From the NCBI GenBank assembly GCA_035352955.1, contig DAOPYQ010000002.1, forward strand, positions 233,267-297,266: DNA of 64,000 nt, read 5' to 3'. The notes beneath the pieces were generated by a model. It did no database searches. It saw only the letters and a list, made by a program, of their open reading frames with translations, and was not told the origin of the DNA. Every line of letters begins with the position of its first letter. Position 1 is the stretch's first letter. Of this stretch, positions 20,965 to 64,000 are shown piece after piece. This DNA comes from Candidatus Omnitrophota bacterium (GTDB taxonomy: Bacteria > Omnitrophota > Omnitrophia > Omnitrophales > Aquincolibacteriaceae). The position numbers and the translations under genes are program-made.

Positions 20965-21112
20965 GCCAAAAGGTTACCTTGAATATTCGGTTATGTCAAC
21001 CGAGAATTCAATGTTTGTTCCAACGTGAAAATCGGATGCGCCATGCTCATCCTTCAATGATACTCCTCTGATCGAAAGACTAACTCCTCGCTTCCGTTTA
21101 TGATCGGAATGC

Positions 21113-21302
21113 CGGCCCGACCGTCCCTGAAACCCACGGAAGAGAATTCTCCTCCCGAACCCTTTGAAATAATGAAAGCTGAAAGTCAAATGCCGACTGT
21201 TTCCGTTATCGGCATCTTCCGCTCCGATATTGACCGCGTTATACCCCCCAGGGGGGGGGGAATCCGAAACGCAAAATCCTAAATCCAAAAAACTTTAAAT
21301 CC
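21113..21302. repeat. ~190-bp direct repeat, copy 2
   Basis: Same sequence as 19606..19795 in the same orientation. Confidence 0.8.
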
Positions 21303-26393: not shown

Positions 26394-26650
26394 CGATATT
26401 CTCCGACTTTACGAACGACGAGCAACGGATCACGAGTAACGAGCCGCGTCACTCGTCGCTCGTGACCCGTTACTGATGCGTCAATGAGTTGCAGAAGGGA
26501 GGGAACCTTAAGTCCCCCTTGCCTTAGATTTTATTCCAAAAAGGGTTGGCAAAGCTCGTCCCAATTTCAACTTCGTTGAAATTGATAGGCCTTGGGACTA
26601 CAATGCAACCCGACCCGCAATATATCTCACTGAAAGGATTCGTATTCTAT

Positions 26651-38960: not shown

Positions 38961-39018
38961 GATGACTCCTTGTGATTTGAGGGGAGACTATAACAGAAAA
39001 GCAGAATAGGAACAATCA

Positions 39019-39173
39019 GGATGGAGGATGACGGATGGCGGAGGGCGTAAAAGCCAAAGCTCCATCCGCCCCAACTTTTAATTTTATTTCTGAAAAGGTA
39101 GTTGGGACGGCCCCAATTTCCGCTTCGCAAAAATTGATAGGTATTGGGACCGCCCTCCGTCATCCGACATCCG
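39019..39173. mobile_element. MITE-like element with ~22-bp terminal inverted repeats GGATGACGGATGGCGGAGGGCG, intergenic copy
   Basis: The left end ggatgacggatggcggagggcg and the right end cgccctccgtcatccgacatcc are reverse complements. An inverted copy of the whole element lies at 39842..39942. Confidence 0.6.
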
Positions 39174-42100: not shown

Positions 42101-45100
42101 AAACCTTTCAAAATTATTCAAAGAATCCGTGAGGGCGCGCCCGTGCTCCTGATCGTAATCGATCAACATATCCGGTATTTTCGGAGCAAACTCCGCCAGA
42201 AGAAAATGAGAAGCAAAATCCATACCGAAGATCTCGTATTTCACGAATTGTTGGAGCGCAAGCTTAAGTGTAGATATGTCGACCAGCAACCGGCCCCCCG
42301 GCTTGAGGGCCTTGACCCATTTGGAAAAAAATCTTGGAGCTTCTTTTTCGTCATTAAAGGCATAACTCAGGGACTTCGTTCCTATCATCAGGTCAAGCTG
42401 TCCTTCCCCATAATCAAGCGTGCTGAAGTCCGCCAGCAACGGATAGGCCGCCACATTCCCCGGAAGGACCGCGCGATATTTAACCCCACCTGAAGATCCT
42501 TGGAACGAACTGTCTTTCTGAAAGAATTGTTCAAAGATCAGCTTGAGCGGCTGGGAAACATGATATTCGCCCCAGTTTCTATCGGTCATATAATTACGCG
42601 CTTGGGAAGGATTCGCGCTGATCCCCCTCAGGACCTCTATCTCCGGCCGCTGATTCGAGACCACTGAGAGCTCGATCGGGCGCTTACCATATCTCCCGGC
42701 AAGCACGCCGGCAACTTCCAGAAATTGGGGCGACTCTAGGGAGCCTGCTTCATCATGTAATCCAGGTCCCATTAAAGCCACTTTTAGAGGGCCGCGTTTA
42801 GCAGTATCAAGAGGGCGCAGCAAAAGATCGTATAACCCCGGAAATCGCTGTGCCTCAGTAAAGTCACCGTATCCGGACCGTCCGTAGAATTTCGCCAGCT
42901 GCGGATTGATCGTCCGCAGATAATCCGCGTAGGGGCCCGCCGCTTGAGCTGCCTTATCCGCAGGCTCCCGAATCTCGGCTCGGACTTCCTTGGTCCGGGC
43001 ACGAGTGCGTGCAGGACTAGGGGTGTCCTGCCGCATCTCAGCACGGCCGCCCACCTTTGCGGCCGGCCGAGGAGTGCTTGAATGCAGATTCAAGCGCACC
43101 TCGGCTGGGACTTCCTTGGTCCCAGCACGAGTGCGTGCGGGACTAGGGATGTCCTGCCGAATCTCGGATCGAAGGGCGGCGATCGTTCTGACGGCTGAAT
43201 CCAGTTTGTCATAGAACTCAAGGGAGTCGGCTTCGCGGGTGATCACGAGCGGCTTGCTCAAACCGGGATGGCCGAGGATCAGCTCTCCTCTGTCCGCTGT
43301 CACGGAAGCCCCGTACATCTTGTTCAAAACCTCGTTCAGGATCTCCCGGATCCCGGCGGCGGTCCTGTCGGAAGGATTGCCGTGAAGCTGGATCGGCGCT
43401 ATCCAGAGGATCATTTTCAAAAGCTCCCGGTCGTATTGACCCGGTGTGGCATGTTCTTTTTGCCGGACCAATACATCGAATTCTTTCAAGGATTCCCGGA
43501 GCGCGGGATAAAAATACCGGTTCAGCGCCTCTCTCGCATTTTGAGATCTTCCGAACCGAACTCCGCTCAAATGCATCGCGATCCGCTCGGTCCCTCTTTC
43601 CAAAAAGATCTTCGGCTTTACATCGACCTCGTGGTCCCCATAACCGGATGCGAAAAGGATCGCGTGCTCCGTTGATTTGCGGAGACACTGGGCCGCTTTT
43701 TTCGCAAAATTGACGGCATCCTCCCCGTATTCCCCGTAGCTTTGAACGTCCAGCTCGGCTCTTAAAAGTTCGGTCCGGGCTTGATCGGCTTCTTTTTCCG
43801 CCTGATCGAGCGCGCGCCGGAAAACAACCTCCTTACGGGCGGCTTCCAGAACGGCGTCCCGATGGCTTTCAAAATACCCTTTCAAGTCCAGCATCAGATC
43901 GAGGACCAGATCTCCGTACGTGGATAAAACCTGTTCTTTAAGAGCAGCCTCTTTCGCTTTATAGATCGTTCTTTGTCCGGAACCCTGAAAAACCATCATG
44001 AAATCCGCCGCCAGCGCTGCGGCGGCGATCCTTTCCCGGATCTCTCCGGAAAAATACTTTTCAAGCGCCGGCCAGGCGACCGCAAGGTCCGGGTCTGTCT
44101 GCAGAAGTTTCGCGGTTTCATCGACCATCTCTTCATCCACCCACTTCAGCAGAACCGGCGCATCCAGACCGGCCACTTCCATTTCACGTCCTCTTGCCGC
44201 GAAACTTTTGGGGAACATTTTTTTAGCCCGGGCGATCCGTCTTCGATCTCTTTTCCATTCTTCGTTCGCGTCCCGGATCTTTTCAGGAAGGGATTGAACC
44301 GCTTTTTTGAGCTGTTTGATCAGGTCTTGGGGCACGTATTCCTTCGAGGACTTCAAGCCCCCTCTCGCTACCGAAAAAGACGCCAAAATGAACTGGTACG
44401 CGACCTTGAGCATGGGAACGGTTTCTCTCAACGCGTCCGGACCCGTCACATCCAGATCGTATTTCTGCTCTTTCATGGCCTGATAAAAAATATCGAGCTC
44501 AGCTTCGTCCCACGGCATGCCGCGTAAAAAGAAATCCATGAGCAGTTCTTTATCCGTCCCCATCTCCGTCCCCGCAGGCTCTGTTTTAGCAAGGGACAGG
44601 AATGTATCGCCGCCGGATGAGCGCAAAGTCGCGCGAGCAGGCGAGTTCACGTCCGCCTCGCTGATCGCGAGAGCCAGGGCCTCCGCGATCCATCGGCGGG
44701 TCCTGTCAGTGGAGCGGGCTTCCCGCCTGTCCGCCGGCAAGGGGCTGTTACCCGAGATAGAGTCGGGCTTCATCTCGGGTCCGGCATCCTCCTTTTGGAA
44801 GGTGAAACTCAGGGAGGCGGGATCGAACCTCATGTGCTTGAGGAAAGCGAAAACAACGGCCGGGTCGTAAAAAACGCCCGCGAGATTCGCGATCTCCGTC
44901 AGGGCTTCCGACGGTTTGAAGATATGATTGTAGGGCCGCTGAAAGGTCATCGCGTCGAACGAGTCAGCGACCGCCGTGATCTTCGCGATAAGCGGGATCT
45001 GATGGCCCGCGAGCCCTTTGGGGTAGCCCTGCCCGTTGTATTTTTCATGATGCGCGACGACATTCGCCGCGACCTCACGGAGATATTCGAACTTCTCCAT

Positions 45101-48100
45101 CAGCGGTCTCAGCACGTTAAACCCCTCTGCCGCGTGGCTCATCATCACGGGCCACTCCGCGGGATCGAGCCGCCCCGGCTTCTTCAGGATCGCGTCGGGC
45201 ACCGTGAGTTTGCCGATATCGTGGAACGCGAAGCTGTCGACCAGCGTCCGGGTGACATCAAGTCCCATAACCCCGGCCGTGGCAACGCCAAGCTCCGTCA
45301 CGCGCGCCATGTGATCGAGCGTGACTTCGTCTTTTTCCGCCATCTGTTCGAGCAGTGCGAGAAGCTCGCTCCCGACCGGCCCGTATTTCAGGACCCTCCC
45401 GATCGCCTCCTCCCCCGCCCGAAGTTCGCTCCGGTCCGCGGGAGTTCCCCAGGAGGAGCGGGAAACCTTCAGGGATATCTCGAGGGAAACTGCATAACTG
45501 CCTTGTTTTAAGATTGAAGCAGAGCTCTGAAGTCCGGCAATTTCATTCGTTCTTTTAATTCGATAGACACTTTCCGGGAATTGGTCTTTCAAAACCACTG
45601 CCCACTCGTTCCGTCCTCCAAACTCCGCTGTAAAATCATCCGTATCATCAGGAGCAATAACCAACCGCCCCTTTGGCTTCAATAAACGGAAAATGCTGGC
45701 CGCCTTCCTCTTCCCAGAATCAAAAAGATACGTTTCATCCGGATAAGGCGCCAAACAATAGACCCCCGCCACGAAAGCCGCTCCCTTTTGCGCGGCAAAA
45801 GCTTCGGAGTCCTTACCGAGGATGATCCGGACATTCCTCAAACCTTCCTGCCGGATCAATAAAACCATTTTGTTGAACAACGCCGGATCGGGTTCGATAA
45901 AAATGAACCGGGCCCCGGGATTCTCACGCACAAGCGAAAGCGAAATCCAGGATTCGCCGGGACCGATATCTACGAACAGGGGCGCCGCGGCATTACCAAA
46001 AACTTCCCGCCAGTCCGCCGTCACAGAAATGATCGGAGAAAAATCGTTTTTCGCGGTTGCTTGGCGGTCGTTTGTTTTTTCATTTTCCGGCGACGCTTTT
46101 TGCGTTTGCCGCGACTCGGAGCGGGCCTCCTGCCTGTCTGCCAACGTGTCCACGGCAGAGCTATCTCTTGTTTGTTTGCGGGCCAGTTCCTCTTCAGCGG
46201 CCCGCCGGACTTCCGTCAAAAGCGCTTCGGTCGAAATGTCTTCGGGCGTGCTTAAGAGGATCGCGGGAGCAACGCGGGCCAGGAACCGGAGGATGGCGAC
46301 ACTGCCGTAAGAATAGGTCCATTTCTTCTTGAGGTGCGTGATGTCACTAAAGCCTTCCTTGACGAAAACGCTGGTCGAGGCCTGGAAGGTGCTTGGCGTA
46401 TTTCCGTCCTCGCGCGCGGTCCGCACCAAGAGATCGGAAAAAGGAAGCATTCTCTCCAGGGTCAGCTGCGGGTACGGATCAAAGACCTCCTGCATCCCGG
46501 TAGCGTCCGTATCGAGATTGTAGAATAACGCCTGCTTCCTTGGCCTCGTGACGGAGGGATTCCCGAAAAATTTCCCGATCCATCCCCAACTGGTTTGCCC
46601 GTCAATGCCCGGCACGGACGCCGTCCGCCACAGATCAAGGCTTCCCTTGACCCAGAAGTGCCCGGCCAGGAACCCCGTCGCGCGAAAAGCCTGATTAAAA
46701 TTTTTCATGGTGATCCAGAAAAGGGAATCTCCAAGCACCCCGGATATTTTTTCCCAGTCTTTTAACCGCGCCGGATCTCCGACGGGAGGAAATTCACCGG
46801 GCATTTTAAAGAATGGCTTTGCCGGATCCGGGATCGCGCCATCCGGACCCGCCGAAGGGCTTTCGTCATGGTGCTCGTCCATAAAAAGCTGGATATTGCC
46901 GGAAGTCGGCATCTCCCCCCGGGCCGCCGCTTCCATGGCATATTTAGCGGAACTTCCGTGATCCCCCGCAAAATAAAAACTGACCGTCCCGCCGCCGGGT
47001 CTTTTGAAACGGATCACCACGTCCCGCGCGGGGACCACGGGATTTTCCCCCGCCTGGACGATGTCCTGCCAGGTCCCCAGGATCAGGGCCGGAAAATCGT
47101 TGGATTGCCAAACGCCCTTTCCGTCGGCCTGCCGCACAAAATGATAATGTGCCCGGTCGAATTCATCGAGGAAGGGGGGTTGTCCTTCTACCGAAGGTGC
47201 GTGAAGTTTCTCCGCCGGATAATACATCATGCCTTCCGCCAACCGATCGATCCGCATCTCAGCACGGCGGCTTTCATTAGAAGCCGGCTGAGAAGTGCTT
47301 GAATATTGATTCAAGCGCATCTCGGCTGGGGCTTCCTTGGTCCCAGCACGAGTGCGTGCAGGACTATGGATGTCCTGCCGCACCTCGGCGCGGGGAAGGT
47401 TTTGGTCCATGACGGCGATCACGTCTGTCACTATCCGCCGGAATTGCTCGTACGTAGGCGCGGCATTGGCAATACGCTGCCCATCCACCAGCTGTTGACC
47501 ACGGGCAGAGCTGTAAAACGACGCCGCGGTCGCGTCGGACACCGCATGACCCGTGACCCGGTTTGAAACAAGAGTGAGTACATCCTGTAAAACATGGCAT
47601 AACTCATGCCCCGAAGATTTCAGGAATAATCCGGTTAACCAGATACTTCCTCCCACAACGATCGTCGCGCCCGCCGAATACAGGAACAAGCCGGCATCGA
47701 TATGAGATCCTCTGTTCGCCAAGTCGTGAAGAACCATGCTCGCAAAGAGCGCCGGATAAACATGAATCCGGTCAAAGTAGCGGATCACTTTCACAGAGCC
47801 CGCCTCATCGAAATGGGTGGCGGTCTCTCCTCCGTTATATTGGAATATAAGCTTCCCCAACGAAAACACCAGGCTCCCAAGCCCCCATAGCGTGTGGAGA
47901 TAACGTTTGTGTTTGAGATCTTTAAAAATTTCCAACGGAGTGCGATAAAAGAACCGGTAAAGTTCATTGAATATGACTGCCGTCCAACTCCCCGGGGCTC
48001 GGACCACGGGAACGCCGTACCGGGCTGCCAGGATTTTGACAAAACGCTCGTAATCGGCCGCGTCCCTGAGCTGGCCGGGAACGGAGAACATCGTTGATTC

Positions 48101-51100
48101 CATCCAGGCCGAAGCCAAAACATCGTTCAATAACCGCTTTAAGGGCGGCCGTAATCGCTCATCCGCCGCAACGGCCGCGGTGGAACTGTCATCGATTTTC
48201 CGTGCCGTCCCGGTCCGTAATTCGTTTCGTCCGAATTTTTCGAGCCGCTCCCCGGTGAATTTCTCGAGATCCGCAAAACCTTCCCCCATCCTCCGGACAG
48301 CCTCCGAAAAAACCTCCCGGTTCCACGCCCGGTCCTGACTTTCAATGAAGACCTCGTAAGGGAAATAGAACATCTGCTCCATCTTTGTCATCGGATGTTC
48401 TTCGGAATTATTTTCCACCAGACGCCCGGCATCCCGGTATTTTGCGTAGCGCGGGCCCGCAAAGTCCTCCCGGATCGCCTTGACCAATTCCTGATACTGG
48501 GCCAGCACCGCCCCGACCCGGTCAAGATCGCCGCGGATATCTTTCGAAAGGTCCCGGGCCAAAAGACCTTTCTTTAAAAGAACATACATTTCGAGTTTGA
48601 GGGCGGCCAGCGAGTTCCTGATGTTATGGTCAAACCATTCTCCCCAGGTCACCCGGTCGCCGTCATAACCCTCCCCGAAGACCGAAAAACCGTTCTCAAG
48701 TTCTGTCACGATCCCGATCAGGTCCTCTAGATACTGGACCTTCTGGCGGAGTCTATAGATGTCCGTTCCCTTTTCCTCGCCCGCCGCGGCCTTGCCTCCG
48801 AAAGAATCCGCCCTTATCGGAGCCTCCGGATCGGGCCATGCGATCTCCCGGGGAACCTGGATCACGGAAGGAATCGTTCCATAAGACGCCACCGTCTTCG
48901 CGCCGAACAAAAGATCCTCATATCCGGGAACGATCCGGTCGTCGAACGCTTTTTCCGCCGAAGTATAAAAAAGCGACGCGCGGTCAAGGCGAACCTTCTG
49001 CGGCTCATGCGCCTCGCGGTTCGTGCGGCTTACGGCATCCGCGAGAATGGCCGCTTCTTCGGGGGAAAGCGGCGCCACCACATGCATCGCCGTAACGTGA
49101 TAACGGGTCCGCGGCCTGAAATTCGAAAGACCTTTGTGCCTTTCGAGAAGTCCTTCCACCATCGCGTCCATCGCGGCAAGATCCGAGTCCCGCGCCGGGT
49201 CGAACTCAAAAACAAGAAGCCGGCCTCCCTTGAAAAAAGCAAGCTTTCCGAGGTAACCTTCGGCCGACTTCATGGTCTCAGCCGCTTCGCGAAAAACCGA
49301 CGGGTCCTTTTCCAGTTCCGGGTTCCGGTCTGCGGGTCCCGCAACCAACGTGATGTGCCGGACCTCCGAAGGAACCAGCCTTACCTTGGCCGCGAGCTTG
49401 GGATCCGCGCGGTCGAGCTTGCGAAAAAGTTTCAAAAGCATTCCGTCCATATACGCGTTCGCTTCGGGATCGTTCCCGAGCCTGTGGGCAAACACAACAT
49501 GACGCGCCGGCTCGATCGGCTCTCCCTTGACACCCTCCGCCTTCATCGCGGCAATATCGTCCTCTTCGAGCCTCGCGAACTGTTTGCGGTATTCCTGAAC
49601 TCGCTGAACGGTACCGGGCACCTTGTGGACACTAAAGTGCTGCTTCGCCGCAGGTTGATCCGCCCGCATCTCAGCACGGCGGCCCCCCTCTGCCGCCGGC
49701 TGAGAAGTCCTCGGATATCGATCCGAAGGATCCTCGGCCCTCGGGATTCCCACAACGATGCGGTACAACTGCTCATTGTGCCGGTACAGTCCCGCGACCC
49801 GGCCAAGCGATTCCAGCGACCATCCTCGCTTTCGGGCCAGGGCCGTCAAGGAAGCAATCTCGTAATCGGTATACTTGGGAGATTCATCGCCGAGCATCAA
49901 CAGGGTCCCGGGATGCGAGCGCTTCAGAACATTCCCGACTAGCTCATCGATCTCTGGCTTGGAGGACAGGTAACGCGCCTGTTCCGGATGCTGCATGATC
50001 GAGGGCAATACATTGAGCATGATGACCAGATCAAAATTCTCACCAGCGGGGATCCCCCCGAAATCGGTCTTCCTCCCGCGGTCCATCGCGTCAAGCCGGT
50101 CCTTCAGGACCGAAGCCCAGGCCGACACTTTCGGCACTTTGAACTGCCGGTCAAGAGCCTCCCGGAGCGCCGCCACCCGCTCAACGTATTTCTCGTCGTG
50201 CACATCGCTGGGCTGCAGCAGGGTCACATCCACCCCGGCAGTTTCTAAGGCAAAACTGATATCAAAGAAATCGGACGGTCCCACCTCGAGGACTTTCTGC
50301 CCTGCCTTGATCCTGCCGCTCGCGAAAAGTTCCTGCGCAAACCGGACGGCACCTTCCTGAACCCGCCGCGCTTCCTCTTGCTCGAAGGAATACCAGCGCA
50401 CCACCCAGCTCAGAACATCCAGCACACCGGTCCGGTCAAACGCTGTCAGAAGGTCCCGGACAGGAATGCTCTTTCCCTGAGCCTTCGCGGGCGCCGTTGC
50501 TTTCACGGATGTTTTCCCCGCCCGTGATTCGGCGCGGACGTCCGGCGCAAGCCGGACCTTGAAGATCTTCACCGTCTGCGTGCCGGCGGGACGGCCGAAC
50601 GCGCTGACCGAAATGACCTCCTGGCGGATCTTTCTGACCGAAAGACCCTTTTCCTGTTTGAAGAGAGGCTCCAGGGTATTTCCAATTCCCATGACGTAGT
50701 AGGCGCCGCCGGGTTTGAGACGAACGGACAATTCGGACAGGGTTTTGGAAAACGTCCTGCCTCCGGGGTCTTCCGTCCTGAGATCCGCTTCGTTTCGGTC
50801 TTCGGAAGGAGCCGGGGCGTTATCAATAATGGCATCGTAGGTATCGCGGACATTCTCAAACCCGTCGCTTTCCCAGACCCGCACACGGTCCTGAAGGTTG
50901 TGCGCGTACACATTGGCCAGGCTGTTTTGAACTTCCAGCTTACCAATGTCCACGCCGTCGAGCTCGATACCCGGTACCGTTTTCCCGAGAACCACAAGCT
51001 CCGGACCTGCCCCCGACCCCTTAACCAGGATCTTTTGACCCGGACGGATCTCCGGAAGGACCGCGGCGAGCAGGACGGCAACATAGGGATTTTCGGGAGA

Positions 51101-54100
51101 ATACACATTGGCAAAAACGAGGAACCGGTAGTCGTTTAATGTCTGCTCCCGGAATTGAATGCGGTGGGCACTCGAAACATTGATCCGCTCGCCGGTCTTC
51201 TTTCCCGGAAAAACCACGGGCGAAAGCAGGTCCCGGCGGTCCCGCCAGAAGGAGAGCCACTCTTCTCCCGGATCAAATATGGATTTTCGCCCCTCAAAAA
51301 CCGTAGGGTCCAATTCCATCAAGCTGAGGTTCCCGCGTCTTGTTTTCTCAACCGCCAGGCCAAGAGGGTCGCCCTTATACGCAAGGAGCCAGGAACGGAA
51401 AACTTCGCCGTCTGAAAACCAATCGGCAAACCGGATCACCCGGTCAAGCGATGCGGACGGCTCGATCGGAAAAACGCTATAGCCCTCGCCAAGCGAAAGA
51501 CCGGCGGGTCCCTCGGGAGATATCCCGAGCGCCTTCAGGTAAAAATAAAGCGGCGAATTTTCCGAGACTTTCAAACCCTCCGCCCGCTTCCCTTCCCTCG
51601 GCGCCGCCCGCATCTCCGCGCGAAGATCGTCCTTTTTGCTCCCGGAATCAGCGTCTGCGGCTGAGCCCCTTCCCGAGATAAGATTTTCCCTCATGTACCA
51701 AGCCCCGTAGAGCTTCATATTTTCGGAAGGCGCCGGCACGGAAAACGCAACGGGCTTTTCCAGTGACCGGAGTGCGGCGGCAATAGCCTCGCGGGTTTCC
51801 CGATTGAAGTCCCCCGTTTTCGCGCGCAGATCCGCAAGAGCAGCCCGGATCCTTTCCGAACAACTCCGGTAAACGGAAGAGTTTCCGAGCGCGCGTCCCG
51901 CCTCAACCGCGATCCTCGATGCGCTGATGAAAACCGAGATCTTCACATAAATGTTCTCGCTCTCCTCTCCGAATCCGGTCAGCCCTTGCAGAAGATCTTC
52001 CAAAGCTGAGGGAGAAAGGACGGGCGCTACGCGCTCCATCCCCGCAAGGGCTTTCTTTCTCAGATCGCTTTCGCCGATCCCCTTGAAATTGGAAATAACC
52101 ATCCACTGGGCCGTAAAAAACATGGCCCCAAAAACCGCTAACCCGGCCAAAACCATGCCGTTTTCGGCAAACCATGCGTTCATCGGAGATTTTGCGGCAA
52201 ATTCGGGACGAAGCGCGAAAAGAACTCCGACCATCATCGCCGCTTGAGCTACCGCAATGCTTTGAACGAGCCCGACGAGCGCGATCCTTTTCAGGATCTT
52301 TATCAGCCGGCGGTCTCGCCATGTCTCGGCGGTTCCTTTACTGCCATCCTTGAGCACTTTCAACCAGTAGACCGCCTCGACCGAAGCGATCCATTCCGTT
52401 CTCACCTGCTGCATCAGCTGTGAAGATCCGGCCGGTGCGGCGTCCTCAATCAACGCATCGAGGACCCTTCCGAGATTTTCTTCATAAATAATGGTGAGCC
52501 CTTTAGGAAAGAGACGGGCGAGACGCGAATCGCTCGGCAATCGGGAGAGATCAGCTCCCGCGGCCAACATCTCCCGGAGCGCAAAAAGCCGGGCGATCAC
52601 TTCAAGCTCCAGAGAAGTCGCCGGACGTTTAATGTCTTTTCGTAGGATCGCAAGCTGTTCGCGTGTCCGGGACGCCCATTCTTCATCTACATTCGTGCCC
52701 CGTTCCACGATCCGGACCGCCCCAGAACCTTGGGACAGCTTCGCGCCTGCACCCACGGGAGCGGCGTCAGAAACGGTAACAGAAGGCTCGTGAAGAGCCT
52801 TTTGCGGAACGGTTTTCTCCAAACCCTCGACCGCCAGAGAAATTTCCTTCCCCAACGCGAAGCCAACGATCCCGAGTCGGGACCGGGTCTCGAGAAGCCC
52901 TCTCCGGAGCATCCGGACTTTCTCTTCGCTCACATGGATGACCGGAAGCTCCCCGGGATCTTTGGAGACCGAAACGGCGAGCCGGGAAGCACTTAAAAAT
53001 GCCTGCATTTTCAGGGAGAGATCTTTCTGGTCCTCCGCGAACCGGATCAGACGGTCCGTCATATCCGCGCGAACTTCGGACGCCAGATCCGGCGCGATCT
53101 TCGCAAGCTCCACAAGTGCGTTTTTTCTCAAAACGGCTTCCGCGATCCCGCCGGTGCAAGCGAGGATCAGGAAATTTAAACCGGAGAAAAGCCCCACGAA
53201 TCCGGACACCGCGGTAAAAAGAACCCGGCTCTCCGCGAACCCTCCCTGCGCCGCGGAATTCGCGCCGCCGAAGTAAAAAGACCCCAAAGCCCCGGCCAAA
53301 ACCGCCGCAGCCTGAACGATCCCGGCGATCGAAAGTCTCCGCAAAAGTTTTTCGGTGCGCCGCTGTTTTTCCGTCCGGGCAAAGCCTTTTCTGCCGTCCA
53401 CCAGGACCTTGAACCAGTAGCCGGCTTTCACCGTAGCGCTCAAGGCCGCTTTTTGATCCGGCGAAAGCCCGGCATCCCCGGCCCTTTCGACTTCCCCGAT
53501 CAACGCTTCCAGGATCCTTTCCAGATTCCCGGAATAAATAAGCAGGAGCCCTTTCGGGAAAAGGCGGCCAAGCCGAGAATCAGCCGGAAGTCCGGAAAGA
53601 TCCGCGCCCTCGGCCATCATGTCGCGAAGCGCGAAAAGCCGGGAGAGAACTTCAAACTCTCGCGGGAGCGCGGAACGCCTGATGTCTTTTTGAAGCGTCA
53701 CATACTGTTCGCGTGTCCGGGCCTCCCATTCTTCATCCGCGGTCCAGACACGAGTGCGTGCAGGGCTAAGGATGTCCTGCCGCAATTCAGCCCGGACAGA
53801 TCTGGGTTCCTTTTCATATCCCCTTGCGGCCTCGCGGGCGGTCGAAAGAACGGCAATGCTGCCAAGATCGAGAGCTTCGTTCATGGGCCGGATCTTTGAC
53901 CGGTCTTCCCCAGAGAAGGTGCTGCTCACCCCTCCCACGTACGTCGCGAACTTCGGGGAAGAACCCGTTGCTCCGGTGGAAGGATACATTTTTTCCAAAG
54001 TCCTGAGCATCAGCCGCGCGGCCAGGATAAGACGATCGCGAAGTTCCTCCTTGGAGGAACCTTTTTCGAAAGAAGCCGCGAGGGTGTGTTCCCCCGAGAG

Positions 54101-57100
54101 ATCGCCCTGGGGTTCGAAATCAAAGATCATATGAACCGCCTGCTTGGGATCATGCCCTCTAAAGCCGAGGTCTTGATGCCGGTAGGTCCGTTTGAGACCG
54201 TGGTGAGGCGTTACGACGATCGTGATCTCATGCTCAAGAAAATAGAGGCTTGCGAAAACGTTCACGTCCTTCTGCCCGCTGTGTTGAAAGGCCCGCATGG
54301 CTGCGACCTCGCCGGAAAGACGCTGCGCAAAAGTTTCCAGAGACGCTTCATTCCACTCGCCGGAGCGGAGCGTCAAGGCTTTCCGGTCCCCTTGCTCATC
54401 GAGAAATTCTTCCGCGATCTTTCCCTGCGATATTTCCGTAGCGGTTTCCGTCTGCGGGGCAAGCGCCTTGGGGGCGACAGCCGGGGTCTTTTTTTCCGGA
54501 AAATATTTCTCGAGGAAAAGGGCTATCCGACGGAACAGCCCCGGAGCTTTGGCTAAAAAAACTTCTTTGGGGCCGGGGAGAGCCTGCTCCGCGTTTCTCG
54601 ATAGGATCGCGCTAATTGAACTAATATCCGCTTCGACCCTGTTCGTCCGGGAGCGCGTCATGAGCCACGGACCTTCCTGGATCTCACGGAGTATGTTGTC
54701 AACTTTCGCCTGAAGGACTACGGCGTCGGCTTCGAGCGACGCGTCAGGCTCGCAGAACGTCCCCTGCGGGGTTTCCGTCGCAAGTTCGAGCGCACGAAGA
54801 TAAAGGTTGGTCGCGCGGAAAAGCGCGGGGTCTTCCGACTTGAGGAGTTGTCTCTGCGCCAATAAATTCCGCGCCATTGATTCCGCAAAACGTTCCCGGT
54901 TCGCCCCCAGGATCACCGTATTGACGATAAGATCCGCGGTCAATGTTCCGACCGCATACTGCTGGTTCGCATTAAGCCGTCCGTCCGGATCCAGATCGTA
55001 AATGGGCCCGTGAATGCCAAGCTCCCTCAACAGCCGTTCCCCGGCCTGCCGAACGAGCGCGTGGTCGAACGAATAAGAAAGGCCGAGCTGGAGCGCGTTC
55101 CGCGGGATAAGGATTATTTCCCCCATCATCGAGACCGCGACGTCATTCGCCAAAGCAAAAGAGAGGTTTTCCAGGGGAGAAATCGCTTTTGCTTCCTGGC
55201 GTTCGTAATGGGCCCAATAATCATTCCGGAACTTCGCGAAATCTTCTCCGGTCTCGAGGATCCGGACCCGGGGCGTCACGTCCAGATGCGGGAAGATCTT
55301 TTGCGCCTCCTCCATCGTTCGCGCCACCCAGGCTTCCGAAAGAACGTCCCCCTCCGCCCCATGTTGGCGCATCTCGGCTGGGACTTCCTTGGTCCCAGCA
55401 CGAGTGAGTGCAGGACTATGGAGGTCCTGCCGCAGCTCGGCACGTACGGGAAGCAAAGAACGGGTTTCCGCGCCGGCCTGGCCGACAGGCTGGCCGTCCC
55501 CTTTCTTTTTGAGTGTGACGACTTTTTTCCGGAGCTCGAGGGGGGAGGTGTAAAGCGGAACGGTCCCGTCCAGTTTTCCGGAGGCTTCCCCGGCGGCTTT
55601 TTGAACGATCTCCGAAGGATCTTTTTGCCCCCCGGCAAGAGTTGTCAGAATATTTTTCCAGGCCTCTTCTTGCCCGGTGCCAAGACGCCCGGCGATCTCC
55701 CCGATCGCAAAAAAGGCCGCCCTCCGGATAGCGTAATGATCATGCCTTGCGGCTTTCATTAATACAGGGAGCGATTTTGTGTCGCCGGCCCGGCCCAAGG
55801 CCTCGGCGGCTTCCTTACGGGCCGGAAGGAAATCATCTTTCCGGACCGTTTCGCGGAGCGCGGCAAGTACAACCTCCCGCATTTCCGCTCCCAGATGCCC
55901 GGTGCGCAGGAACGCGCCCAACGCGATCGCCGCCGCCGGCCTCAAAGCCATATCTTCCACATCATTCTTTTTCAGTAGATCGATCAGAAACGGGATCAGC
56001 TCGACTTGCTCTTTTGTGCCGGCGCCAAGGATGGCGAGGATCTTGCCGGTATTCATGATCGGAATAACCTTGAGCCTGGCCCTTGCCTCAAGCCATCGGG
56101 TCACGAGACGATAGGCGGCATAGGCAGCCAGCGCAGCGCCGGCGACGTAGTAGAGGTCGCTCCCCGTCCATTCGCCGCGGATCAATCGGTCGCCCAGGAA
56201 CGCGACGCCCGGGACCGCATCCGCCCGCAGCTCGGCTGGGACTTCCTTGGTCCCAGCACGAGTGAGTGCAGGACTATGGATGTCCCGCCGCAGCTCGGCG
56301 CGCATCGGCTTCCGGTCAAATTTCCGGCGCAGCACGGTAACATTGTCGGGCGCGGTCTTGCCTCCCGCGTACTCGACATATTGTTCCGCTGAAGTTCCGT
56401 ACGAAACAAACCCCCGGATCCGCTCATCGCGAAACTCCCGGGACTTCCCCGCGTGGAATCCATAGATCCCGTCCGAAGCCAGAAGGACCTCGACCGCGCT
56501 TGCGTCGCTCAGGTCGATCGTCTGGATATCGACTACCGGGATCAGGATCTTCCGGAAAGCCCGGTCCCCGAAAGAACGGCCCGTGATATGGGATTTCCCG
56601 GTCACGGGATCCGTCAAATACCACCCGCCGTTTTTTTGTTCCGCAAACGTATAATCGCGTCCTTCCAGGAGCCCGGCTTTTGCGGCCACCCCCCGGTAAG
56701 CATCCCGCTGTTTCGGGTCCGAAAAATGCTGTTCCTCGACCGGAACTTCCTTTCCGTCCTTGAGAAGATATGCCGGAGAATCTCCGATCAGCATAAGGTG
56801 CAGCGTCTTCCGGTCCGACGGCACGAATACGCAGGTGAGGGTCGAGCCCGACTTGAATCCTTTCATCATGGAATAAAGGATTTTGAACGTCCTCTCAAAC
56901 GCCGCGCGGATATCGCCTCGATTCAGGAGAAGCGCCCACTTGAAGACGGGCGTCAAAAGAACGCTCAGAAATCTCGAAACGGCCTTTCCGCCGTGCCCGT
57001 CCATGACCGCCATCATCTGCCCTTCAACCTTCATCCATCCCGGGACCCATACTCTGAGTTTTCGATCCACAAAACTGTCTTCCTGGGGCAGCGCAAGTTC

Positions 57101-60100
57101 CGGGTGTCCGATCTCGCTGCCGCGGGCCTGCGCGATCTCCGTTCTTTCCGGATCCTTGAAAGAGATCCGCTCCCAGGCGCGAGAAGAAACACTGGCAAGG
57201 CTGCGAAGGACGGCCCCGAGGACCTTAAGGGCGGTGCCGCCGGCGATGCTGATCATCAACCCGAGGGACCATTCCCTGACTTCCCGGGCGTTAAGGAACA
57301 TCGCCCACTTGAATTCCTGCGGAGAAAGAACGCCTTTCCCGAAACCGCGATCCAACATGAACAGGGAACAGCCTCCCGGTTTTCGCATATCAAAGACGGC
57401 GGCGTAATCGGGGTAGAGCTTCAGTTCGTCGGCGGGGAGCGGCCTCGGCCCGACAAGAGACATTTCTCCCTTAAGGATGTTGAGGATCTGCGGGAGTTCG
57501 TCGAGAGCGGTCCGGCGAAGGAACGCGCCGATCGGGGTCGGGATCCGGTCGCCTCCTTCCGGCATGGTCCGGAACTTGTACATCCAGAAAAGTTTCTGCC
57601 GGTAACCCGGCCGTTCCTGCCTGAAAAAGACCGGCGCCCCGATCCACGGCGCAAAGAGCAGTGTCGCCGCCGCCAGGAGCGGCAGCAAGGCCACCGCCGC
57701 CGCGACATCGATCACCCGGATCCACGGCGCCCATTTCGCGTACGGCGTCTTCCGGAATTCTTTCGGCGTAATAATATTCCGGTCGCGCCCCCCGAAAGAA
57801 ACCGCTTTACCACCCCCCTCGGAGACCCGGTCTCCGAGCTGCGGCGACTGATCGCGAAGCTCGGCGCGGCCGCGAGCTTTCGATGGAGCGGACGAATTAA
57901 GATCCAGAGCGGCCAATTCTTCCAGCGAGGAAGCTTTTAGTTCCGGAAAAAGCTTCGCTTCCGTAAAAGCGAGGATCCTGCCGGAGCGCCCCCGGACCTG
58001 CTGATCGATCGCTTTTGAGATCAGCTGCGCCGCGCGGATCACTCCCTGCCGCTGCCTTTTCAAGATAGCTTTGGCGCCCGCGCGCAGAAGACCTTCCTCG
58101 CTCTCCCCGAAGAAATCTTGCATGGCTTCCGTATAACCGGACAAATTCTGCTGAGGCCAGAGATGAACGCCCGATAAAATCCCTTTCTGATCGTAAATAA
58201 GCGTGACTCTGATCCAGTCGGAAGCGTAGAGACTGCGCGACACGTCGTACTTTGTTCCCCGGATCGCCTGGAGATGGGAAGTGGCCTTTTCTTCGAATCC
58301 CAGAAGCACCTGCTGCCTCTTTTCGGAGATCGCCAAGGCGCCCAACCGTTGCCCCGGTCCGGCTTTCGCGGGGATCATTTGAGAAAGGATCCGGACAGTG
58401 ATGTCGTCGTTTAATCCGTAGGGGCCCAGTTCCGCCTCTCGCTGGCGGACCAAGCTTTCCTCCGGCTCGTCTCCCGCAAGATCCGTCCGCAGCTCGGCTG
58501 GGACTTCCTTGGTCCCAGCACGAATGCGTGCAGGACTATGGATGTCCTGCCGCCGCTCAGCGCGAGGCTGGCCTTCGGAGGATCTCTTCTGCTGCAAGTC
58601 GGCACGGGATAACCACCCCCACCGGATCAGGAGATCGACGGCTTCTTTTTGAAAATTTCCCGCCGCGGATCCTTTCGCCTTCAACTCGGATGCGATCCTC
58701 TCGATCACCTGCCATTCATCCCTGTGTTCCAGAGCGGCTCTTTCAAAGACGGCTTCGAGCATTCTTCCGCGAATTGAAAGATCTTCTTCCTGAGAAGCGG
58801 TGAACGCCAGGATCTCCTCAAGGAGCGAACGGGCCACAAGCTTTTTTTCTTCGGCTTCCGTCAGCGGGACCTTGTGCAAATACCGCTCCTGAAGCTGGCC
58901 AAAATAACCCGTCAAACCCGAGCCTGTTCCCGGAAGGCCGGAGGCCATCAAGGGGCCTCCCCTCATGCCGTCTTGCAGGAGCTTTGCGTTCATCGCGTGC
59001 GCTGCTCCGACGTTGTAGACGACATTCGCCCGGGGATAGCGGCGCAAGAGTTCGAGTTTTTGCTCGCGAATGAGTTCATCTCGCCGGAGAGTTAATTCCG
59101 CCATCAGTTGCCCGATCTCGCGATAGGTTTTGAACAATTCACCGGTTTCATTTTGATAAAAGAACTGCCCGAGGGAGCCCCCGAGCGCCCTGGCCCGGAA
59201 ATAAAGGTCCCGCCAGACCTCATAGCTCACTTGCATCGGGAATCTTACACGCACGCCGGCGCCGGCCATCCAAAAATCCCGTCGCTTGACGAAACCGTCT
59301 GCCGGTACTTTCGCCCACCGATCACGGGTCTTTTCAAGCCGCCTCGAAACCGTAAGGTCATCCTGTTCGATATATCTCACGGCCCTTTCGCGGGTGACCT
59401 TTTCATAAACCGCTCGGAGCTCCCGGTCATGTTCCGCGAGGATCGCCGGCCACGGAAGTTCACGGATCCCCGCCGGCAGGCGCGCCAGCATATGCTGCGG
59501 AGACATGATCTCTTCAGGGATCACGATCAGTTCCGGATACCCATGGCGGGCAGGATTTTTGTAGGACCTTGCGACAAGCCTCTCCAGCTCCGGACGGATC
59601 TGCTCAAAATCTGCCGTGGTCAGATGCGACGAATACAGGTCGAAGGCGTGCCCTTCGATCACCGCGTCCCGGGAACTTTGCACCCGGAAGACCCGGAAGA
59701 CGCTCAGACCCATGCCGGCCGCCACCGCGAGAGTTCCGCCCATGAAAAAATTCCGCCTTGAAAAACCCCTGCCCTTCGCCGGTAAGGAAGGTTTTTCCGG
59801 TTGCCGCAGAAGCTGAACGCCTTCCGCTGCCCGCTTCCCTTCAACCACGATTGCCTTCGCCCGTATCTCCGAGCGCTTTTCACCCATCCCAGAACCAGGT
59901 TCCCAATCTCCGTCTTCAGGGGCCTCACCTACAGCATCTTGAGCGGGCCGCTGCATCCATTTCCAAAGAACTGACGGACGGATCCCCAACCCCAACCGGA
60001 GCATGGCCCCGACAACCGCTCCGAATTCGAAACCCAGAACCCATGTGGATGCAAAAACCGTAGCGATCGAACCCGCGAGGATCATCCATATTTCCCAATC

Positions 60101-63100
60101 AAGAATAATGCGGAGAGCCGCATAAGCGTTCCAGCTCCGCGGGGAATGGAAGAACCTCAAGATACCTTTTTTCCCTTCCAGGAGATCCTTGAGGGTAAAC
60201 AGAACGGGAACATCAAAGAAAAAGCTTGGCGTTGTAAACTCAGCGAACCCGCGCACCTGTTCATAGGGCTTTTCGACGACACTCCAGCCGAATTTTTCGA
60301 CGGGGATGTAAGCAAAGTTCCGCGCAATATCCGGACCGCAGGTATACGTCACGAAAATTTCTTTTTTGCGCTTGGCGTCTTTCATCCAGCTTGCGATATC
60401 GTCTTCGGTAACATCTCCGTCCGAAGCCGTCCAGGTATTCCACTTCCCGTGCCCTGCCACGCCAAGGTACCCCACAGACGGATCCAGAAGATTTCTTTTC
60501 AGATCTTCCCGGCCGGAATTCTTCAGAACGCGGAACGAAAACCCCTTGAGCCGCCAGTAGATCCGCGCGAACCAAAGCCATGGCTGGATCGCTTGATAGA
60601 TCTCCTGTGTACTGACCAGAAGAACAAATTCCTTTTTCGCTTCCGCGGAAACCGGCAGCGTCTTCACCTGATCGGGTTCTTGAGCGGAAATGCTTCGCGA
60701 AAACACCTCCGGTTCTTCGGCCTCCGGGATCTTCATGACGGCGAGAACGTCCTCGAGATCTCCGATGAAATCATCCAGGGACTCATACCGGAACTGCCGT
60801 TCAAGCCCGCAGCGCTTGAGCATGGCAAGCAATTCCGCCGGCATATAGCCGATCTCCGACAACGCTGCCGACGTCAACCCCTCGTCATTGCGCAGGGCGA
60901 TCCCGTTGAGCATTTTCCCAAGGCGCATCAAGTCCTTCGTGGAATACAAATTAAAGTCGATGACCGTGAATCGCTTTTCGGGACCGGAAAGAAAAACGTG
61001 CCAGTATTGCAGGTCCCCGTGGTTTTCGCCCGTCCAACGCTGGAATTCCCTGAGAGCTTTCGCAAAAGCCAAAAGCTGCGGCGCCAGCACCGGAAAATTT
61101 TCCCGGAAATAATCCTCACCCCGAAGATCCTTTGTGCCCCAGAGAAAGTCACCCAGTTTGACGCCTTCAACGGGCTCTGTAACATTGACCGGATTCCCCA
61201 GAGGGTCCTTCAGCGTGATCCCTCCCGCGAAATACCGGGTCCAGGGCTCCATCTCATGTTCTTTCAGGACTTGAAAGATCCGGGCCTCCCGCAGCAGGAA
61301 CCGAGGCTCCCGCCGGTCGTTCAACCGGAGCCAAAAATCTTTTCCGAGGAAGCCGTCGGGACGGATCTCCACCGCTTTTTTGACCCGCTTGCGCTCGTCC
61401 TGATCCGACGCGTCATGGAAACCTTCCCCCTCGATCAAAAACCGCCTGCCTTCCAGCGCCACGATGTCCCCGGCCAGGATCTTCTCGTAATGTCTCGTAT
61501 CCTTCACCACCCGAAGCCCCGAAAGATCGGGCCGGACCTTCCCTTTCCGGCTCACCCCTTCGGAGACCCGGTTTCCGAGGCGGGTCGGTTGGTCGCGCAA
61601 TTCCGAACGCCGCCGAAATTCGTCCGAGGCCCAGCCGCGAAGCGTCGAGAGAATATGTTTTTTAAGAAACCTGCTTTCAAGCGAGTCTTCGGCAACGGCG
61701 CGCGCTTCGAAAGAACGCGGCATCGCAAGAGGCCCCGGGCAGGCATCATGAAAGAAAGGCTGGATAAGCGCGTCTTGGGCGACCCGTGCAGGAGGAGAGC
61801 GGCCTTCATCGTCGCCCTGCGGGTCCACCGCGATCCAGGTCTTCAGATGTTTTTCTTCCAGGGTCCTAAAATATTCGGAGAAAAATGTTTTGATCACCGT
61901 GCCCGGATCCGGGAAGAACTCCTTCCGGCCTCCGATATCGAGCGAACGGAAAACAGCGCCGAAGATCGCGGCCTTCACGACCACCTGATCCGCACCCCAA
62001 CGTTCCCCGAAGGACCGGAGGCTTGTCAGGTCCGTTTCCTCTCCCGCGAGCGTTTCGTCTTGAATGTGAAGCGTGTTTTTCCTCAGGCCGGCGTTCTGCT
62101 TGAACGCCTCCTGCCTGCCCATTTTCTCCGCGTTCATCAGGATAAGTTCGGAAGCCGAAAGAACTTTCCCTTTGGGAAGCATCCCAAGGCCGGCCAGGGC
62201 TTCCGAAAGACGCGTCCGGAACCGGGCGAGGTGCGGATCGCTTTGCAAAAGCTGCGGGAACTTGACCCAGCGGTGCGGCGTCAGCGTCCGGTAGAAAAGA
62301 AGGCGGGCAGTCAATGTTTTCCCCTGTCCCTTCGTTCCTTCGCGAAGTTCGGAAACCGTCTGAAGGGCCCCGGCTCCATCGGGGAGAGCGTCGAGGCCGC
62401 GGATCCCGAGGAGCTCGATGAATTCGCGGTTTTTATTCGTCATTTTTTGAAAATGTCTTTTCCCGAATCCGATAGAATCCTCCGTCAGCACGCCTTCATA
62501 ACGGCCAGCAAGATCATTCCAGAAGTGGACCGGAGCATGCTTCGTTTCCTCGTTGGAATAAAGCTCCCCCACGCCTTTGACCGCAAGCCATGTCCCGTCC
62601 CGCAACGGGAAATAAACGGTCCGGAGATTCGCCACCAGAACCGGCATCAGACTTTTTTCGGACGAACGGTCCGTCACGCCCACAAGGATCTTTTGCCCGC
62701 GGCGGAGCATCTCCGCGACGACGGCCGGATCGCGCGAAGCGAGAAAAACGGCATGCTTGTCAAAAAACTCCTCACCTCCCATCGCTTTCACCGCGCCGGG
62801 ATCGATCGCCTCGAACGACCCGGTAAAATGTCCGGCCGGCATCACCGCCATGAACACCGGTTTAAGCGCATGATCCTCCAAAAGAACCCGTTGGATCTCG
62901 TCCGTGAACAAACCTCTCAGCGCCGGATATCCCGCCAGCCCTTCTTCGTGGAAATAAGCCTCGAAGCGGCCGCTCACCCCCTCGGAGACCGGGTCTCCGA
63001 AGTGGGTGGGTTGTTCACGCAATTCCGCGCGAACGGAATCTGCTTCGGCGATGCGAATCGCCGAAGGGAGATCTTCCCATCCCGGAAACGGCTTCATGTC

Positions 63101-63793: not shown

Positions 63794-64000
63794 GGGATAA
63801 ACCTGACGGGCCCGGGTTCGCGCGAGCTCAAAAGAGCTCCCGCTGTAATAATCCGAAATATCCCTCTCGGAAAAAACGAAAGCCTCCTTGCCGGCATACG
63901 AAAAAAGCGGATAAAGAACATCCGCCCGGCCTTGCTGGTAGTTCCAGAATTCGGATTCCAGATAAAAATTCGCGACCTGCCCGCGCTTCGGGTCCCGCTC

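Follow-up and report, generated by a model that had tools for sequence, protein, structure and literature searches.

Probable old in-place duplication of a putative membrane-anchoring helical module within a giant Omnitrophota gene

The window (the complete stretch of 64,000 nucleotides of DNA that was analysed) harbours a large part of a giant open reading frame (ORF), the frame of which is still open at base 64000 and runs uninterrupted for 24.6 kb inside the window (Table 1). This is longer than the 20 kb above which Omnitrophota ORFs are regarded as giant. The identical sequence is present in GCA_035403665.1, where it was called as a protein of 10,513 aa; the strain is represented in roughly 12 assemblies, and the organism occurs in samples such as JGI 3300025858 and SRR5007244. 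The neighbouring genes encode YchF, citrate synthase and PepA, which are exact matches to NCBI proteins labelled 'Candidatus Omnitrophota bacterium' by NCBI; on this naming of the neighbour proteins the giant ORF belongs to an Omnitrophota genome. Pfam analysis of the 8,204 aa encoded in the window revealed a mosaic of Bac_transf, PP2C, HEAT, several methyltransferase and HD/HD_5 domains, and the modules of the gene have the size of normal proteins, about 200-750 aa. No dockerins were found among the Pfam matches of these 8,204 aa, nor any match to SecA-DEAD, C39 or S8 domains at E <= 0.01. Assignment of the giant ORF to the 'Archaeovorin' type (West-Roberts et al.) was rejected, since these 8,204 aa lack the domains of this type. 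The window part of the giant ORF shows no signal peptide, the N-terminal ~2,300 aa being encoded beyond the window. Inversion of the segment between inverted repeats at the 3' end would give an in-frame alternative tail of 224 aa, the composition of which resembles antisense noise, and a phase-variable end of the gene is not proposed.

Table 1 Features of the giant gene around the tandem units A and B (window coordinates)
Feature	Coordinates	Strand	Description
Giant ORF	39179..64000	-	Open frame and Pfam mosaic; 8,204 aa from first GTG within window
Truncated type-1 linker RAELRQDILSPARTRVWTA	53738..53794	-	Directly upstream of unit A; hairpins 1 and 2 kept, break in loop of hairpin 3
Unit A, 350 aa (aa 3353-3702)	52688..53737	-	All-alpha module with central hydrophobic helical hairpin and disordered tail
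5' third of unit A	53385..53737	-	DNA-detectable part of the repeat, 70.3% identity to the corresponding third of unit B
Unit A hydrophobic helix 1, LSIAGIVQAAAVLAGALGSFYFG (aa 3487-3509)	53267..53335	-	Preceding 15 residues contain 7 K/R and 2 D/E
Unit A hydrophobic helix 2 (aa 3523-3550)	53144..53227	-	After a 13-residue, almost uncharged loop
Unit B, 355 aa (aa 3703-4057)	51623..52687	-	Paralogue of unit A with matching helix pattern
5' third of unit B	52335..52687	-	DNA-level partner of 53385-53737
Unit B hydrophobic helix 1 (aa 3837-3861)	52211..52285	-	Preceding 15 residues contain 6 K/R and 2 D/E
Unit B hydrophobic helix 2 (aa 3879-3903)	52085..52159	-	From hydropathy scan
RAEMR junction motif	51608..51622	-	Marks the end of the A-B pair; methyltransferase (MTS) module follows

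Just upstream of the MTS (SAM-dependent methyltransferase) module, the gene contains two units, A and B, which a self-comparison of the gene placed in head-to-tail order; the repeat period is exactly 1050 nt. A reading of the sequence alone had described two consecutive units of ~380 aa at this place, with a boundary around position 52640 and ~75% DNA identity. The presence of two consecutive homologous units inside the giant gene was borne out by blastp (124/315 residues identical, 39%, E 4e-68) and by the period, and the self dot-plot proposed as a check has its diagonal at the protein level and at the DNA level. The units are smaller than described, 350 and 355 aa, and meet at 52687/52688. 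Unit A starts with DEEWEARTREQ (aa 3353, window position 53737) and unit B with DEEWASRTREQ (aa 3703, window position 52687), both sharing the start GATGAAGAATGGG. The DNA identity value comes close for the first third of the units only (73% over 260 nt, 70.3% over 353 nt at the unit start), whereas the codon alignment over the full length gave a nucleotide identity of 54% and an amino acid identity of 38%. DNA similarity was detectable over just 353 of the 1050 nt, and third codon positions are 43% identical, compared to 27% expected by chance. Residues conserved between A and B are grouped in blocks, and the N-terminal ~130 residues are the best-conserved part of the module.

Exactly two copies of the module were detected by tblastn in the whole window. 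Both lie in one uninterrupted frame, with GC1/2/3 values that agree with the rest of the gene, and both are kept as coding sequence. The self-comparison was run in chunks, as a whole-gene blastp self-match gives the identity diagonal only; Tandem Repeats Finder is blind to a period of 1050 nt. The A-B pair is the sole module-sized internal repeat in the 8,204 aa, while the ~2,300 residues upstream, outside the window, could hold more. What looked like another repeat within the gene (aa 5338-5516 versus aa 6759-6923) was gone once the linkers described below had been removed.

Modules of the giant gene are joined by the motif R-[AS]-E-x-R, and some of these junctions bear in-frame three-hairpin elements. 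The motif is present in 21 copies versus 0.37 expected, and was also found in the giant ORFs of two other MAGs. The three-hairpin element, or linker, measures 63 nt and is located behind an R-[AS]-E-x-R junction and in frame in 12/12 copies collected (11 complete, one ended by the contig). Nucleotide identity among its copies amounts to 83-88%, and they are nearly identical across the three MAGs, the modules of which are common to the giant ORFs in differing order and share only 27-55% amino acid identity where they match. The hairpin structure of the linker is strongly predicted (z = -5.3) and a direct repeat, GCCGAGnTGCGG, flanks the linker core. The linker DNA pattern had no match in JGI metagenome contigs or IMG/VR, and an empty site lacking the 63-nt element, which would prove insertion, was not found. 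Two preprints on such genes (bioRxiv 10.64898/2026.06.07.730766; bioRxiv 10.1101/2023.11.21.568195) mention neither the junctions nor the hairpin linkers and do not contain the word 'linker'; 'palindrom' is likewise absent from the latter. The A-B pair itself appears to lie inside a split type-1 linker, with the 5' part upstream of unit A and a weak match to the 3' part (20/27 nt) after unit B, as read by eye from the sequences. It is conceivable, as a tentative suggestion, that the pair is one cassette of a cassette-built giant gene in which the junctions are sites of polyprotein cleavage and/or of recombination for module exchange.

Putative membrane segments were called from a hydropathy scan, an apparent-free-energy scale and the positive-inside rule. 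The TM helices that had been read in each unit are there as two hydrophobic helices in the hydropathy scan, but not as the cluster of a polytopic module with several membrane spans. The 8,204 aa contain only about 10 hydrophobic windows, and these include the four hydrophobic helices of A and B. The loops between the paired helices contain 0 K/R and 1 D/E in unit A, and 2 K/R and 2 D/E in unit B. Helix 1 is only marginally hydrophobic in each unit (summed values 3.1-3.5 kcal/mol), and conservation between A and B within the hydrophobic helices is limited to a GxVQxxAV stretch in helix 1. AlphaFold independently predicted a pattern of 11-12 helices for unit A (pLDDT 63.6) and unit B (pLDDT 68.0), the same in both, from models built on a two-sequence alignment and of modest confidence; the weakest region is the hairpin of unit A (pLDDT 48-60).

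From the sequence of both copies we infer that the two TM-like helices of each unit form a positive-inside hairpin. Each copy would then consist of three parts. The first would comprise about five cytoplasmic helices. In the second, the hydrophobic hairpin would enter the membrane past a strongly basic stretch and return after a loop of 13-17 residues, so that both ends of the unit would be inside the cell. The third would be another cytoplasmic helical region, followed by a disordered tail. The even number of membrane passes would keep neighbouring enzyme modules, e.g. the downstream methyltransferase, cytoplasmic. In view of topology and context, the A-B pair would most likely serve to tether this part of the giant multi-enzyme protein to the inner side of the cell membrane, and the two hairpins, of parallel topology, may pack as a four-helix bundle.

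Alternatively, the hydrophobic helices might be the buried core of a soluble helical-repeat scaffold, in which case the module would not be inserted in the membrane. Fold searches, which returned no specific fold for the module, matched designed helical proteins and soluble proteins of the helical-repeat kind only; helix 1 is rich in Ala/Gly besides being marginally hydrophobic, and AlphaFold places the hydrophobic parts within much longer helices. However, both copies contain a pair of uncharged stretches, 23-28 residues long and with a short loop between them, and the 6-7 basic residues before the first stretch and the basic stretch after the second were kept despite the diverged helix sequences. 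Furthermore, hydrophobic windows are rare in this protein (0.6% of positions) and a TM-only architecture is common in this protein class. A soluble scaffold is therefore considered unlikely.

The sequence-only reading had regarded the duplication as recent. Low synonymous divergence along the full length, as would mark a recent event, was not observed: the NG86 dS between A and B is 1.34 over the whole alignment, with 0.76 in codons 1-70 and 1.61 in the remaining codons, and DNA similarity extends over 353/1050 nt. Beyond codon 90, the same codon is used at conserved residues in 25 cases, versus 26.0 expected from codon usage, i.e. at chance level, while in codons 1-90 the same codon was observed 32 times versus 18.9 expected (p = 2e-4). 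Silent sites beyond codon 90 are thus saturated and, judged by this saturation alone, the duplication is ancient and not recent. The saturation affects two thirds of the unit. An orthologue of the module, on which a tree-based date would depend, was not found. The amino acid identity of 38% between A and B falls within the range of 27-55% seen for matching modules across MAGs. The greater likeness of the 5' ~270-350 nt would reflect either later partial gene conversion (homogenisation) or extra constraint.

Taken together, we regard an old, in-place duplication of a membrane-anchoring helical module, in which the flanking linkers had no visible part, as the probable explanation of the A-B pair. 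In this event, a module of 350 codons within the multi-module gene would have given rise to a second, directly adjoining copy in head-to-tail orientation. The junction between the units reads ...ERGTNV|DEEWASR and contains no linker, linker remnant or R-[AS]-E-x-R motif.

It is rather less than likely, and in our opinion quite improbable, that two homologous cassettes which had already diverged were placed side by side by module shuffling. Cassettes do move, as shown by the reordering of shared modules in the giant ORFs of the two other MAGs, and the pair seemingly lies within a split type-1 linker. However, R-[AS]-E-x-R stands at every other visible module junction but is missing between A and B, the copies adjoin exactly head to tail, unit B starting at GATGAAGAATGGG like unit A, and their 5' ends keep an excess of synonymous identity, as expected of neighbouring copies that exchange sequence.

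The palindromic units had been proposed to promote the duplication, in a gene evolving by internal segmental duplication. A recent segmental duplication through recombination between palindromic linkers, with the gene now growing in this way, has very little probability. It would agree with the type-1 linker that directly borders on unit A, with the RAEMR junction after unit B, and with the 70% identity and above-expectation same-codon use in the first 353 nt. Unequal crossing-over between flanking repeats would, however, be expected to yield a hybrid linker where the two units meet, and none is present. The saturated silent sites in two thirds of the unit argue against it as well. Moreover, the linkers are 83-88% identical, versus 54% for A and B, and thus had no visible role in promoting the duplication; nearly identical in the three MAGs, they appear to be of younger age than a duplication with saturated silent sites. 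The A/B pair is a true tandem duplication, but no further module-sized internal duplication was found in the 8,204 aa, and evolution of the gene by internal segmental duplication is weakly supported by this single case. The reordering of shared modules in related giant ORFs indicates that mosaic assembly or shuffling dominates.

Relatives of the module were not detected among 5.8 billion clustered proteins searched with an A+B profile, by HMMER against all of 1.84 billion representatives, in GTDB species genomes, JGI metagenome contigs and IMG/VR, or in Pfam and NCBIfam at E <= 1. The best PDB sequence match, ZapA (E 0.14), was judged to be noise and rejected as a homologue. The linker peptide and the N-terminal 728 aa also matched nothing in the protein database, the gene itself included. 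As the gene's own pieces go unmatched, these protein-database negatives say little on relatives of the giant ORF; relatives do exist at the DNA level, and the related contigs include CAZDVO010000011.1 (51.6 kb) and CAZDVO010000036.1 (21.3 kb). Two-component alpha-helical pore-forming toxins of the ClyA/AhlB/Nhe type are all-alpha proteins of about 340 aa with a central hydrophobic hairpin, encoded by adjacent paralogues. That the A-B pair is such a toxin, directed against prey cells, is highly improbable: size, all-alpha content, central hairpin and adjacent paralogues are family-like, a connection with predation has been made for giant proteins of Omnitrophota, and AhlB, SmhB and MakA chains are in the Foldseek list of unit B, but these matches are not significant (E 0.17-0.5, TM-score 0.13-0.23), no Pfam HBL or HlyE match was found at E <= 1, the units are surrounded by cytoplasmic enzyme modules, and the window shows neither a signal peptide nor a secretion signal. 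Membership of the ClyA/Hbl/AhlB toxins was rejected, as neither sequence nor fold gave a supporting match.

The duplication in itself adds little, being one more case of the rule known for long Omnitrophota proteins, that internal repeats are old and their DNA similarity has decayed. The result does correct the idea of a gene that is growing now by recombination between palindromic units, and presents it as an assembly of protein-sized modules, in which the membrane hairpins fit a membrane-tethered enzyme array facing the cytoplasm. The junction motif and the in-frame hairpin elements could be concrete candidate points of cleavage or recombination in giant proteins, for which information on cleavage points does not exist (West-Roberts et al., bioRxiv 10.1101/2023.11.21.568195). 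If the junctions were processing sites, this would settle whether giant proteins work whole or in pieces.

The closest known system is formed by the Omnitrophota giant ORFs of the 'multi-enzyme' and 'TM-only' classes (bioRxiv 10.64898/2026.06.07.730766; 10.1101/2023.11.21.568195; PMC10066038). The host is likewise named Omnitrophota and the ORF exceeds 30 kb. The gene mixes methyltransferase, HD, HEAT, phosphatase and sugar-transferase domains, and has scattered TM helices and no signal peptide visible in the window; these multi-enzyme and TM-only features, distinct Pfam domains and about 10 hydrophobic windows, refer to the 8,204 aa, with the N-terminal ~2,300 aa outside the window. Of the long Omnitrophota proteins, 46% are 'TM-only', which was read as membrane-anchored with cytoplasmic domains, and their internal repeats are mostly ancient duplications of which the nucleotide tandems have dissolved (bioRxiv 10.64898/2026.06.07.730766). 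The A/B repeat, too, has lost most of its nucleotide similarity. In contrast to the giant ORFs as described, the duplicated module has no Pfam domain and no detectable homologue, and unlike the 'Archaeovorin' type the window part of the ORF is without SecA-DEAD, C39 and S8.

Internally duplicated membrane proteins of parallel topology have an even number of spans per repeat, e.g. the 6+6 halves of MFS transporters. Units A and B are similarly adjacent and homologous, with two predicted spans each; this even number would orient both the same way in the membrane, and they could pack as a pseudo-dimer. Unlike MFS-type repeats, they have one hairpin each and consist mostly of soluble helices, and a channel or transport function has no support. 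Rickettsia palindromic elements (RPEs) and other MITE-like repeats become inserted in frame into coding genes (PMC10969869). The linkers resemble them in being short, palindromic, multi-copy within the ORF and in frame, and in adding a conserved peptide. They are also strongly predicted to form hairpins and have a core flanked by the direct repeat GCCGAGnTGCGG. They differ from RPEs in length, the insert being 63 nt compared to about 150 bp, and, whereas RPEs are scattered in unrelated genes, the linkers follow R-[AS]-E-x-R between modules of giant genes in 12/12 copies.

Units A and B are a true tandem repeat within the giant gene. Their shared opening, GATGAAGAATGGG (repeat family D3), recurs at a spacing of exactly 1050 nt, and the units show 39% amino acid identity (124/315; positives 58%, E 4e-68, blastp). 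Exactly two copies were found in the window by tblastn with either unit as query in all six frames, and likewise two in the giant protein by a maximum-sensitivity HMM search. When the whole window ORF was compared with itself in chunks at the protein level, the A/B diagonal was the sole module-sized internal repeat, the remaining off-diagonal matches being short linker peptides; a second apparent internal pair, of 180 aa, was gone after linker removal. At the DNA level, self-comparison yielded just two off-diagonal matches of at least 90 nt, one joining the 5' parts of A and B (see table) and one a 137-nt compound linker. The dot-plot thus bears out the tandem repeat of the sequence-only reading, which nevertheless overstated it: the units measure 350-355 rather than ~380 aa, the boundary between them had been placed ~45 nt off, and the ~75% DNA identity holds for the first third but not for the remainder.

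The silent sites do not support the view that the duplication is recent. Over a codon alignment of 345 codon pairs A and B share 38% amino acid and 54% nucleotide identity, with 58, 62 and 43% nucleotide identity at codon positions 1, 2 and 3 (third-position chance level 27%). NG86 estimates of dN and dS were 0.58 and 1.34 for all codons, 0.23 and 0.76 for codons 1-70, and 0.70 and 1.61 for the remaining codons. A same-codon test, free of a substitution model, was applied to aligned identical residues with degenerate codons, with the expectation taken from the gene's own codon usage. Beyond codon 90 same-codon use was observed 25 times against 26.0 expected, which means that silent sites are fully randomised there, while in codons 1-90 it was observed 32 times against 18.9 expected (p = 2e-4). 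Together, dS and the same-codon test indicate that the duplication is old; its 5' ~270-350 nt were either later homogenised via partial gene conversion between the neighbours or held under extra constraint.

It had also been suggested that the palindromic units, the in-frame linkers at module junctions, promoted the duplication. A truncated type-1 linker lies directly against the start of unit A, and unit B is followed by an RAEMR junction; nothing linker-like lies between the units. Unequal crossing-over between flanking linkers would leave a hybrid linker at the A/B junction, so that its absence argues against this route, and the linkers are far more alike one another (83-88%) than A is to B. 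The suggestion is therefore without support. The type-1 linker, which reads RAExR-QDIHSPARTRAGTKEVP-AExR and occurs at some junctions only (seven copies in the window, repeat family D2, 83-88% identity), is an in-frame 63-nt insert with three hairpins (RNA fold -44 kcal/mol, z = -5.3) and a direct repeat, GCCGAGnTGCGG, on either side of its core. In two copies a stem pair shows a compensatory change from G-C to C-G, at the cost of two amino acid changes. The giant gene contains two more linker repeat families, types 2 and 3 (see table). A type-3-like palindrome within a class-IV aminotransferase ORF may have been inserted in frame into a gene of the ordinary kind.

The giant protein contains 21 instances of the junction motif R-[AS]-E-x-R, where shuffles give 0.37. 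The motif marks the borders between protein-sized modules, ~19 of them at ~200-750 aa. In the rest of the window it turned up just three times, always on the opposite strand and never within the genes identified there. It could be a polyprotein cleavage site or recombination site. The exact degenerate type-1 DNA pattern matched four loci, which belong to two further MAGs of uncultured bacteria (CAZPCF01 'SRP178699_co1_136' and CAZDVO01 'binchicken_co117_427'), each locus being spanned over its entire 5-8 kb by one open frame with RSExR junctions. Modules shared with the giant gene (Bac_transf 55%, HD 41%, aa 33-242 39% and PP2C 32% identity) stand there in a different order, which points to module shuffling among related giant genes. 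The type-1 copies are nearly identical across the three MAGs, while modules are just 27-55% identical, a range that includes the A/B protein identity. No A/B-like module was found within 26 kb of sequence of these loci.

Instead of the polytopic cluster of TM helices described before, each unit has two hydrophobic helices. Hydropathy scans placed two uncharged hydrophobic stretches in each, and such windows number only ~ten over the 8,204 residues, these four included. Ahead of helix 1, the last 15 residues contain 7 K/R vs 2 D/E in unit A and 6 vs 2 in unit B, the loop joining the helices has 13-17 residues and nearly zero net charge, and beyond helix 2 comes another basic stretch. Under the positive-inside rule, an established principle of membrane-protein topology, this pattern predicts a helical hairpin with both ends cytoplasmic. 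Conservation between A and B peaks in the N-terminal soluble part (57-77% per 30-residue window) and drops to 20-40% over the hairpin and the part C-terminal to it, GxVQxxAV of helix 1 being the sole stretch retained within the helices, a pattern more in keeping with an anchor than with a channel. A SAM-dependent MTS-type methyltransferase adjoins the pair downstream, and we infer that the flanking modules are, like this one, enzymes using cytoplasmic substrates; two spans per unit would leave both neighbouring modules on one membrane side. On these grounds A and B are most likely paralogous, putative membrane anchor modules. They would fix this part of a multi-enzyme protein facing the cytoplasm to the inner membrane, with their hairpins in the same orientation and perhaps packed against each other.

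Neither unit matched Pfam or NCBIfam at E <= 1, or any PDB sequence. An A+B profile gave zero matches in 5.8 billion clustered proteins and, in a full HMMER scan, in 1.84 billion representatives; zero matches were also found in GTDB species genomes, JGI metagenome contigs and IMG/VR, the DNA-collection scans being reliant on exact short peptide patterns. Two further queries from the giant gene drew a blank in the protein database, failing to return even the giant gene; the small genes next to it are represented in both large protein collections. Those collections evidently lack the giant protein and its relatives. Since giant ORFs seem to be absent from both, negative homology for any part of one is weak evidence, and the 'orphan' status of the module is provisional.

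The giant ORF frame is stop-free from 63793 out to the window edge, and the giant gene is annotated at 10,513 residues on contig DAONFQ010000006.1 of GCA_035403665.1, so that the window holds just its C-terminal four fifths. The neighbours YchF, citrate synthase and leucyl aminopeptidase are 'Candidatus Omnitrophota bacterium' proteins by NCBI naming, and elsewhere the window carries ordinary chromosomal genes (PurH, TCA-cycle enzymes, MutY, RsmB, PepA, autotransporter). The giant gene's last ~224 codons and stop are enclosed by inverted repeat arms, of which the right one is translated in frame; the segment keeps an open frame when inverted, yet its product resembles antisense noise. An ORF antisense to the giant gene resembles the sense frame in GC by codon position and probably arises as a side effect of sense-strand composition. 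A direct repeat lies on either side of an AAA_14/DUF4143 ATPase gene, its first copy containing the sole Rfam match in the window.

Positions of features in the window (nt) and the giant protein (aa)
Feature	Position	Strand	Remark
Giant ORF	39179-63793	-	8,204 aa as listed
Unit A	52688-53737; aa 3353-3702	-	starts DEEWEARTREQ (53737)
Unit B	51623-52687; aa 3703-4057	-	starts DEEWASRTREQ (52687)
A/B DNA match	53385-53737 vs 52335-52687		353 nt, 70.3%
Hydrophobic stretches, A	aa 3487-3509, 3523-3550		
Hydrophobic stretches, B	aa 3837-3861, 3879-3903		
Type-1 linker	42987-43046, 43113-43172, 47334-47393, 53736-53795, 55386-55445, 56244-56303, 58506-58565		
Type-2 linker	41600-41673, 43031-43104, 47252-47325, 49664-49737		encodes ...LNPYSSxSRPAAKVGGRAEMR
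Type-3 linker	57814-57875, 61555-61616, 62977-63038		encodes RAELRDQPxxLGxRVSEG; palindrome CTCGGAGACCCGGTCTCCGAG
Type-3-like palindrome (D9, inverted repeat I17)	2103-2158		aminotransferase ORF 1786-2739 (-)
R-[AS]-E-x-R	aa 255, 729, 1307, 1744, 1976, 2498, 2784, 3334, 4058, 4420, 4706, 5468, 5510, 5891, 6121, 6875, 6917, 6938, 7373, 7394, 7806		
Match to GCA_035403665.1 locus	27866-48960		21,095 nt, 100%
3' inverted repeat arms	39014-39172 / 39845-39961		63 nt at 97%, plus 64 nt at 86%
Kin of these arms	~187-210, 26557-26598, 36951-37027		
Antisense ORF	60146-63355	+	1,069 aa; GC 0.66/0.41/0.63
Direct repeat	19595-19792, 21101-21298		198 nt, 94% identical
AAA_14/DUF4143 ATPase gene	19801-20964		
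nhaA-I RNA (Rfam)	19601-19656	-	53.9 bits
Autotransporter	13785-19508	-	1,907 aa; PATR repeats, C-terminal beta-domain, internal 52-nt repeat family (D6)

The junction motif and in-frame hairpin elements are more unusual than the A/B duplication. The type-1 linker resembles an RPE- or MITE-like element inserting in frame. Rickettsia palindromic elements are likewise in-frame palindromic repeats (PMC10969869), but the type-1 linkers differ from them in size and in the specific junction motif that precedes every collected copy. Earlier work described giant ORFs across Omnitrophota that are poorly conserved and rich in TM helices (bioRxiv 10.1101/2023.11.21.568195; PMC10066038). Internal repeats of Omnitrophota long proteins are reported to be mostly ancient duplications with 'dissolved' nucleotide tandems; by the same account, methyltransferase and HD-type domains form the core of a large group of these proteins, and 46% (422/916) of those localised are 'TM-only', a class interpreted as having cytoplasmic domains and a membrane anchor (bioRxiv 10.64898/2026.06.07.730766). 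The anchor reading of A and B agrees with this 2026 preprint, and the pair adds a new case to a known class, that of old internal duplications within giant genes of Omnitrophota.
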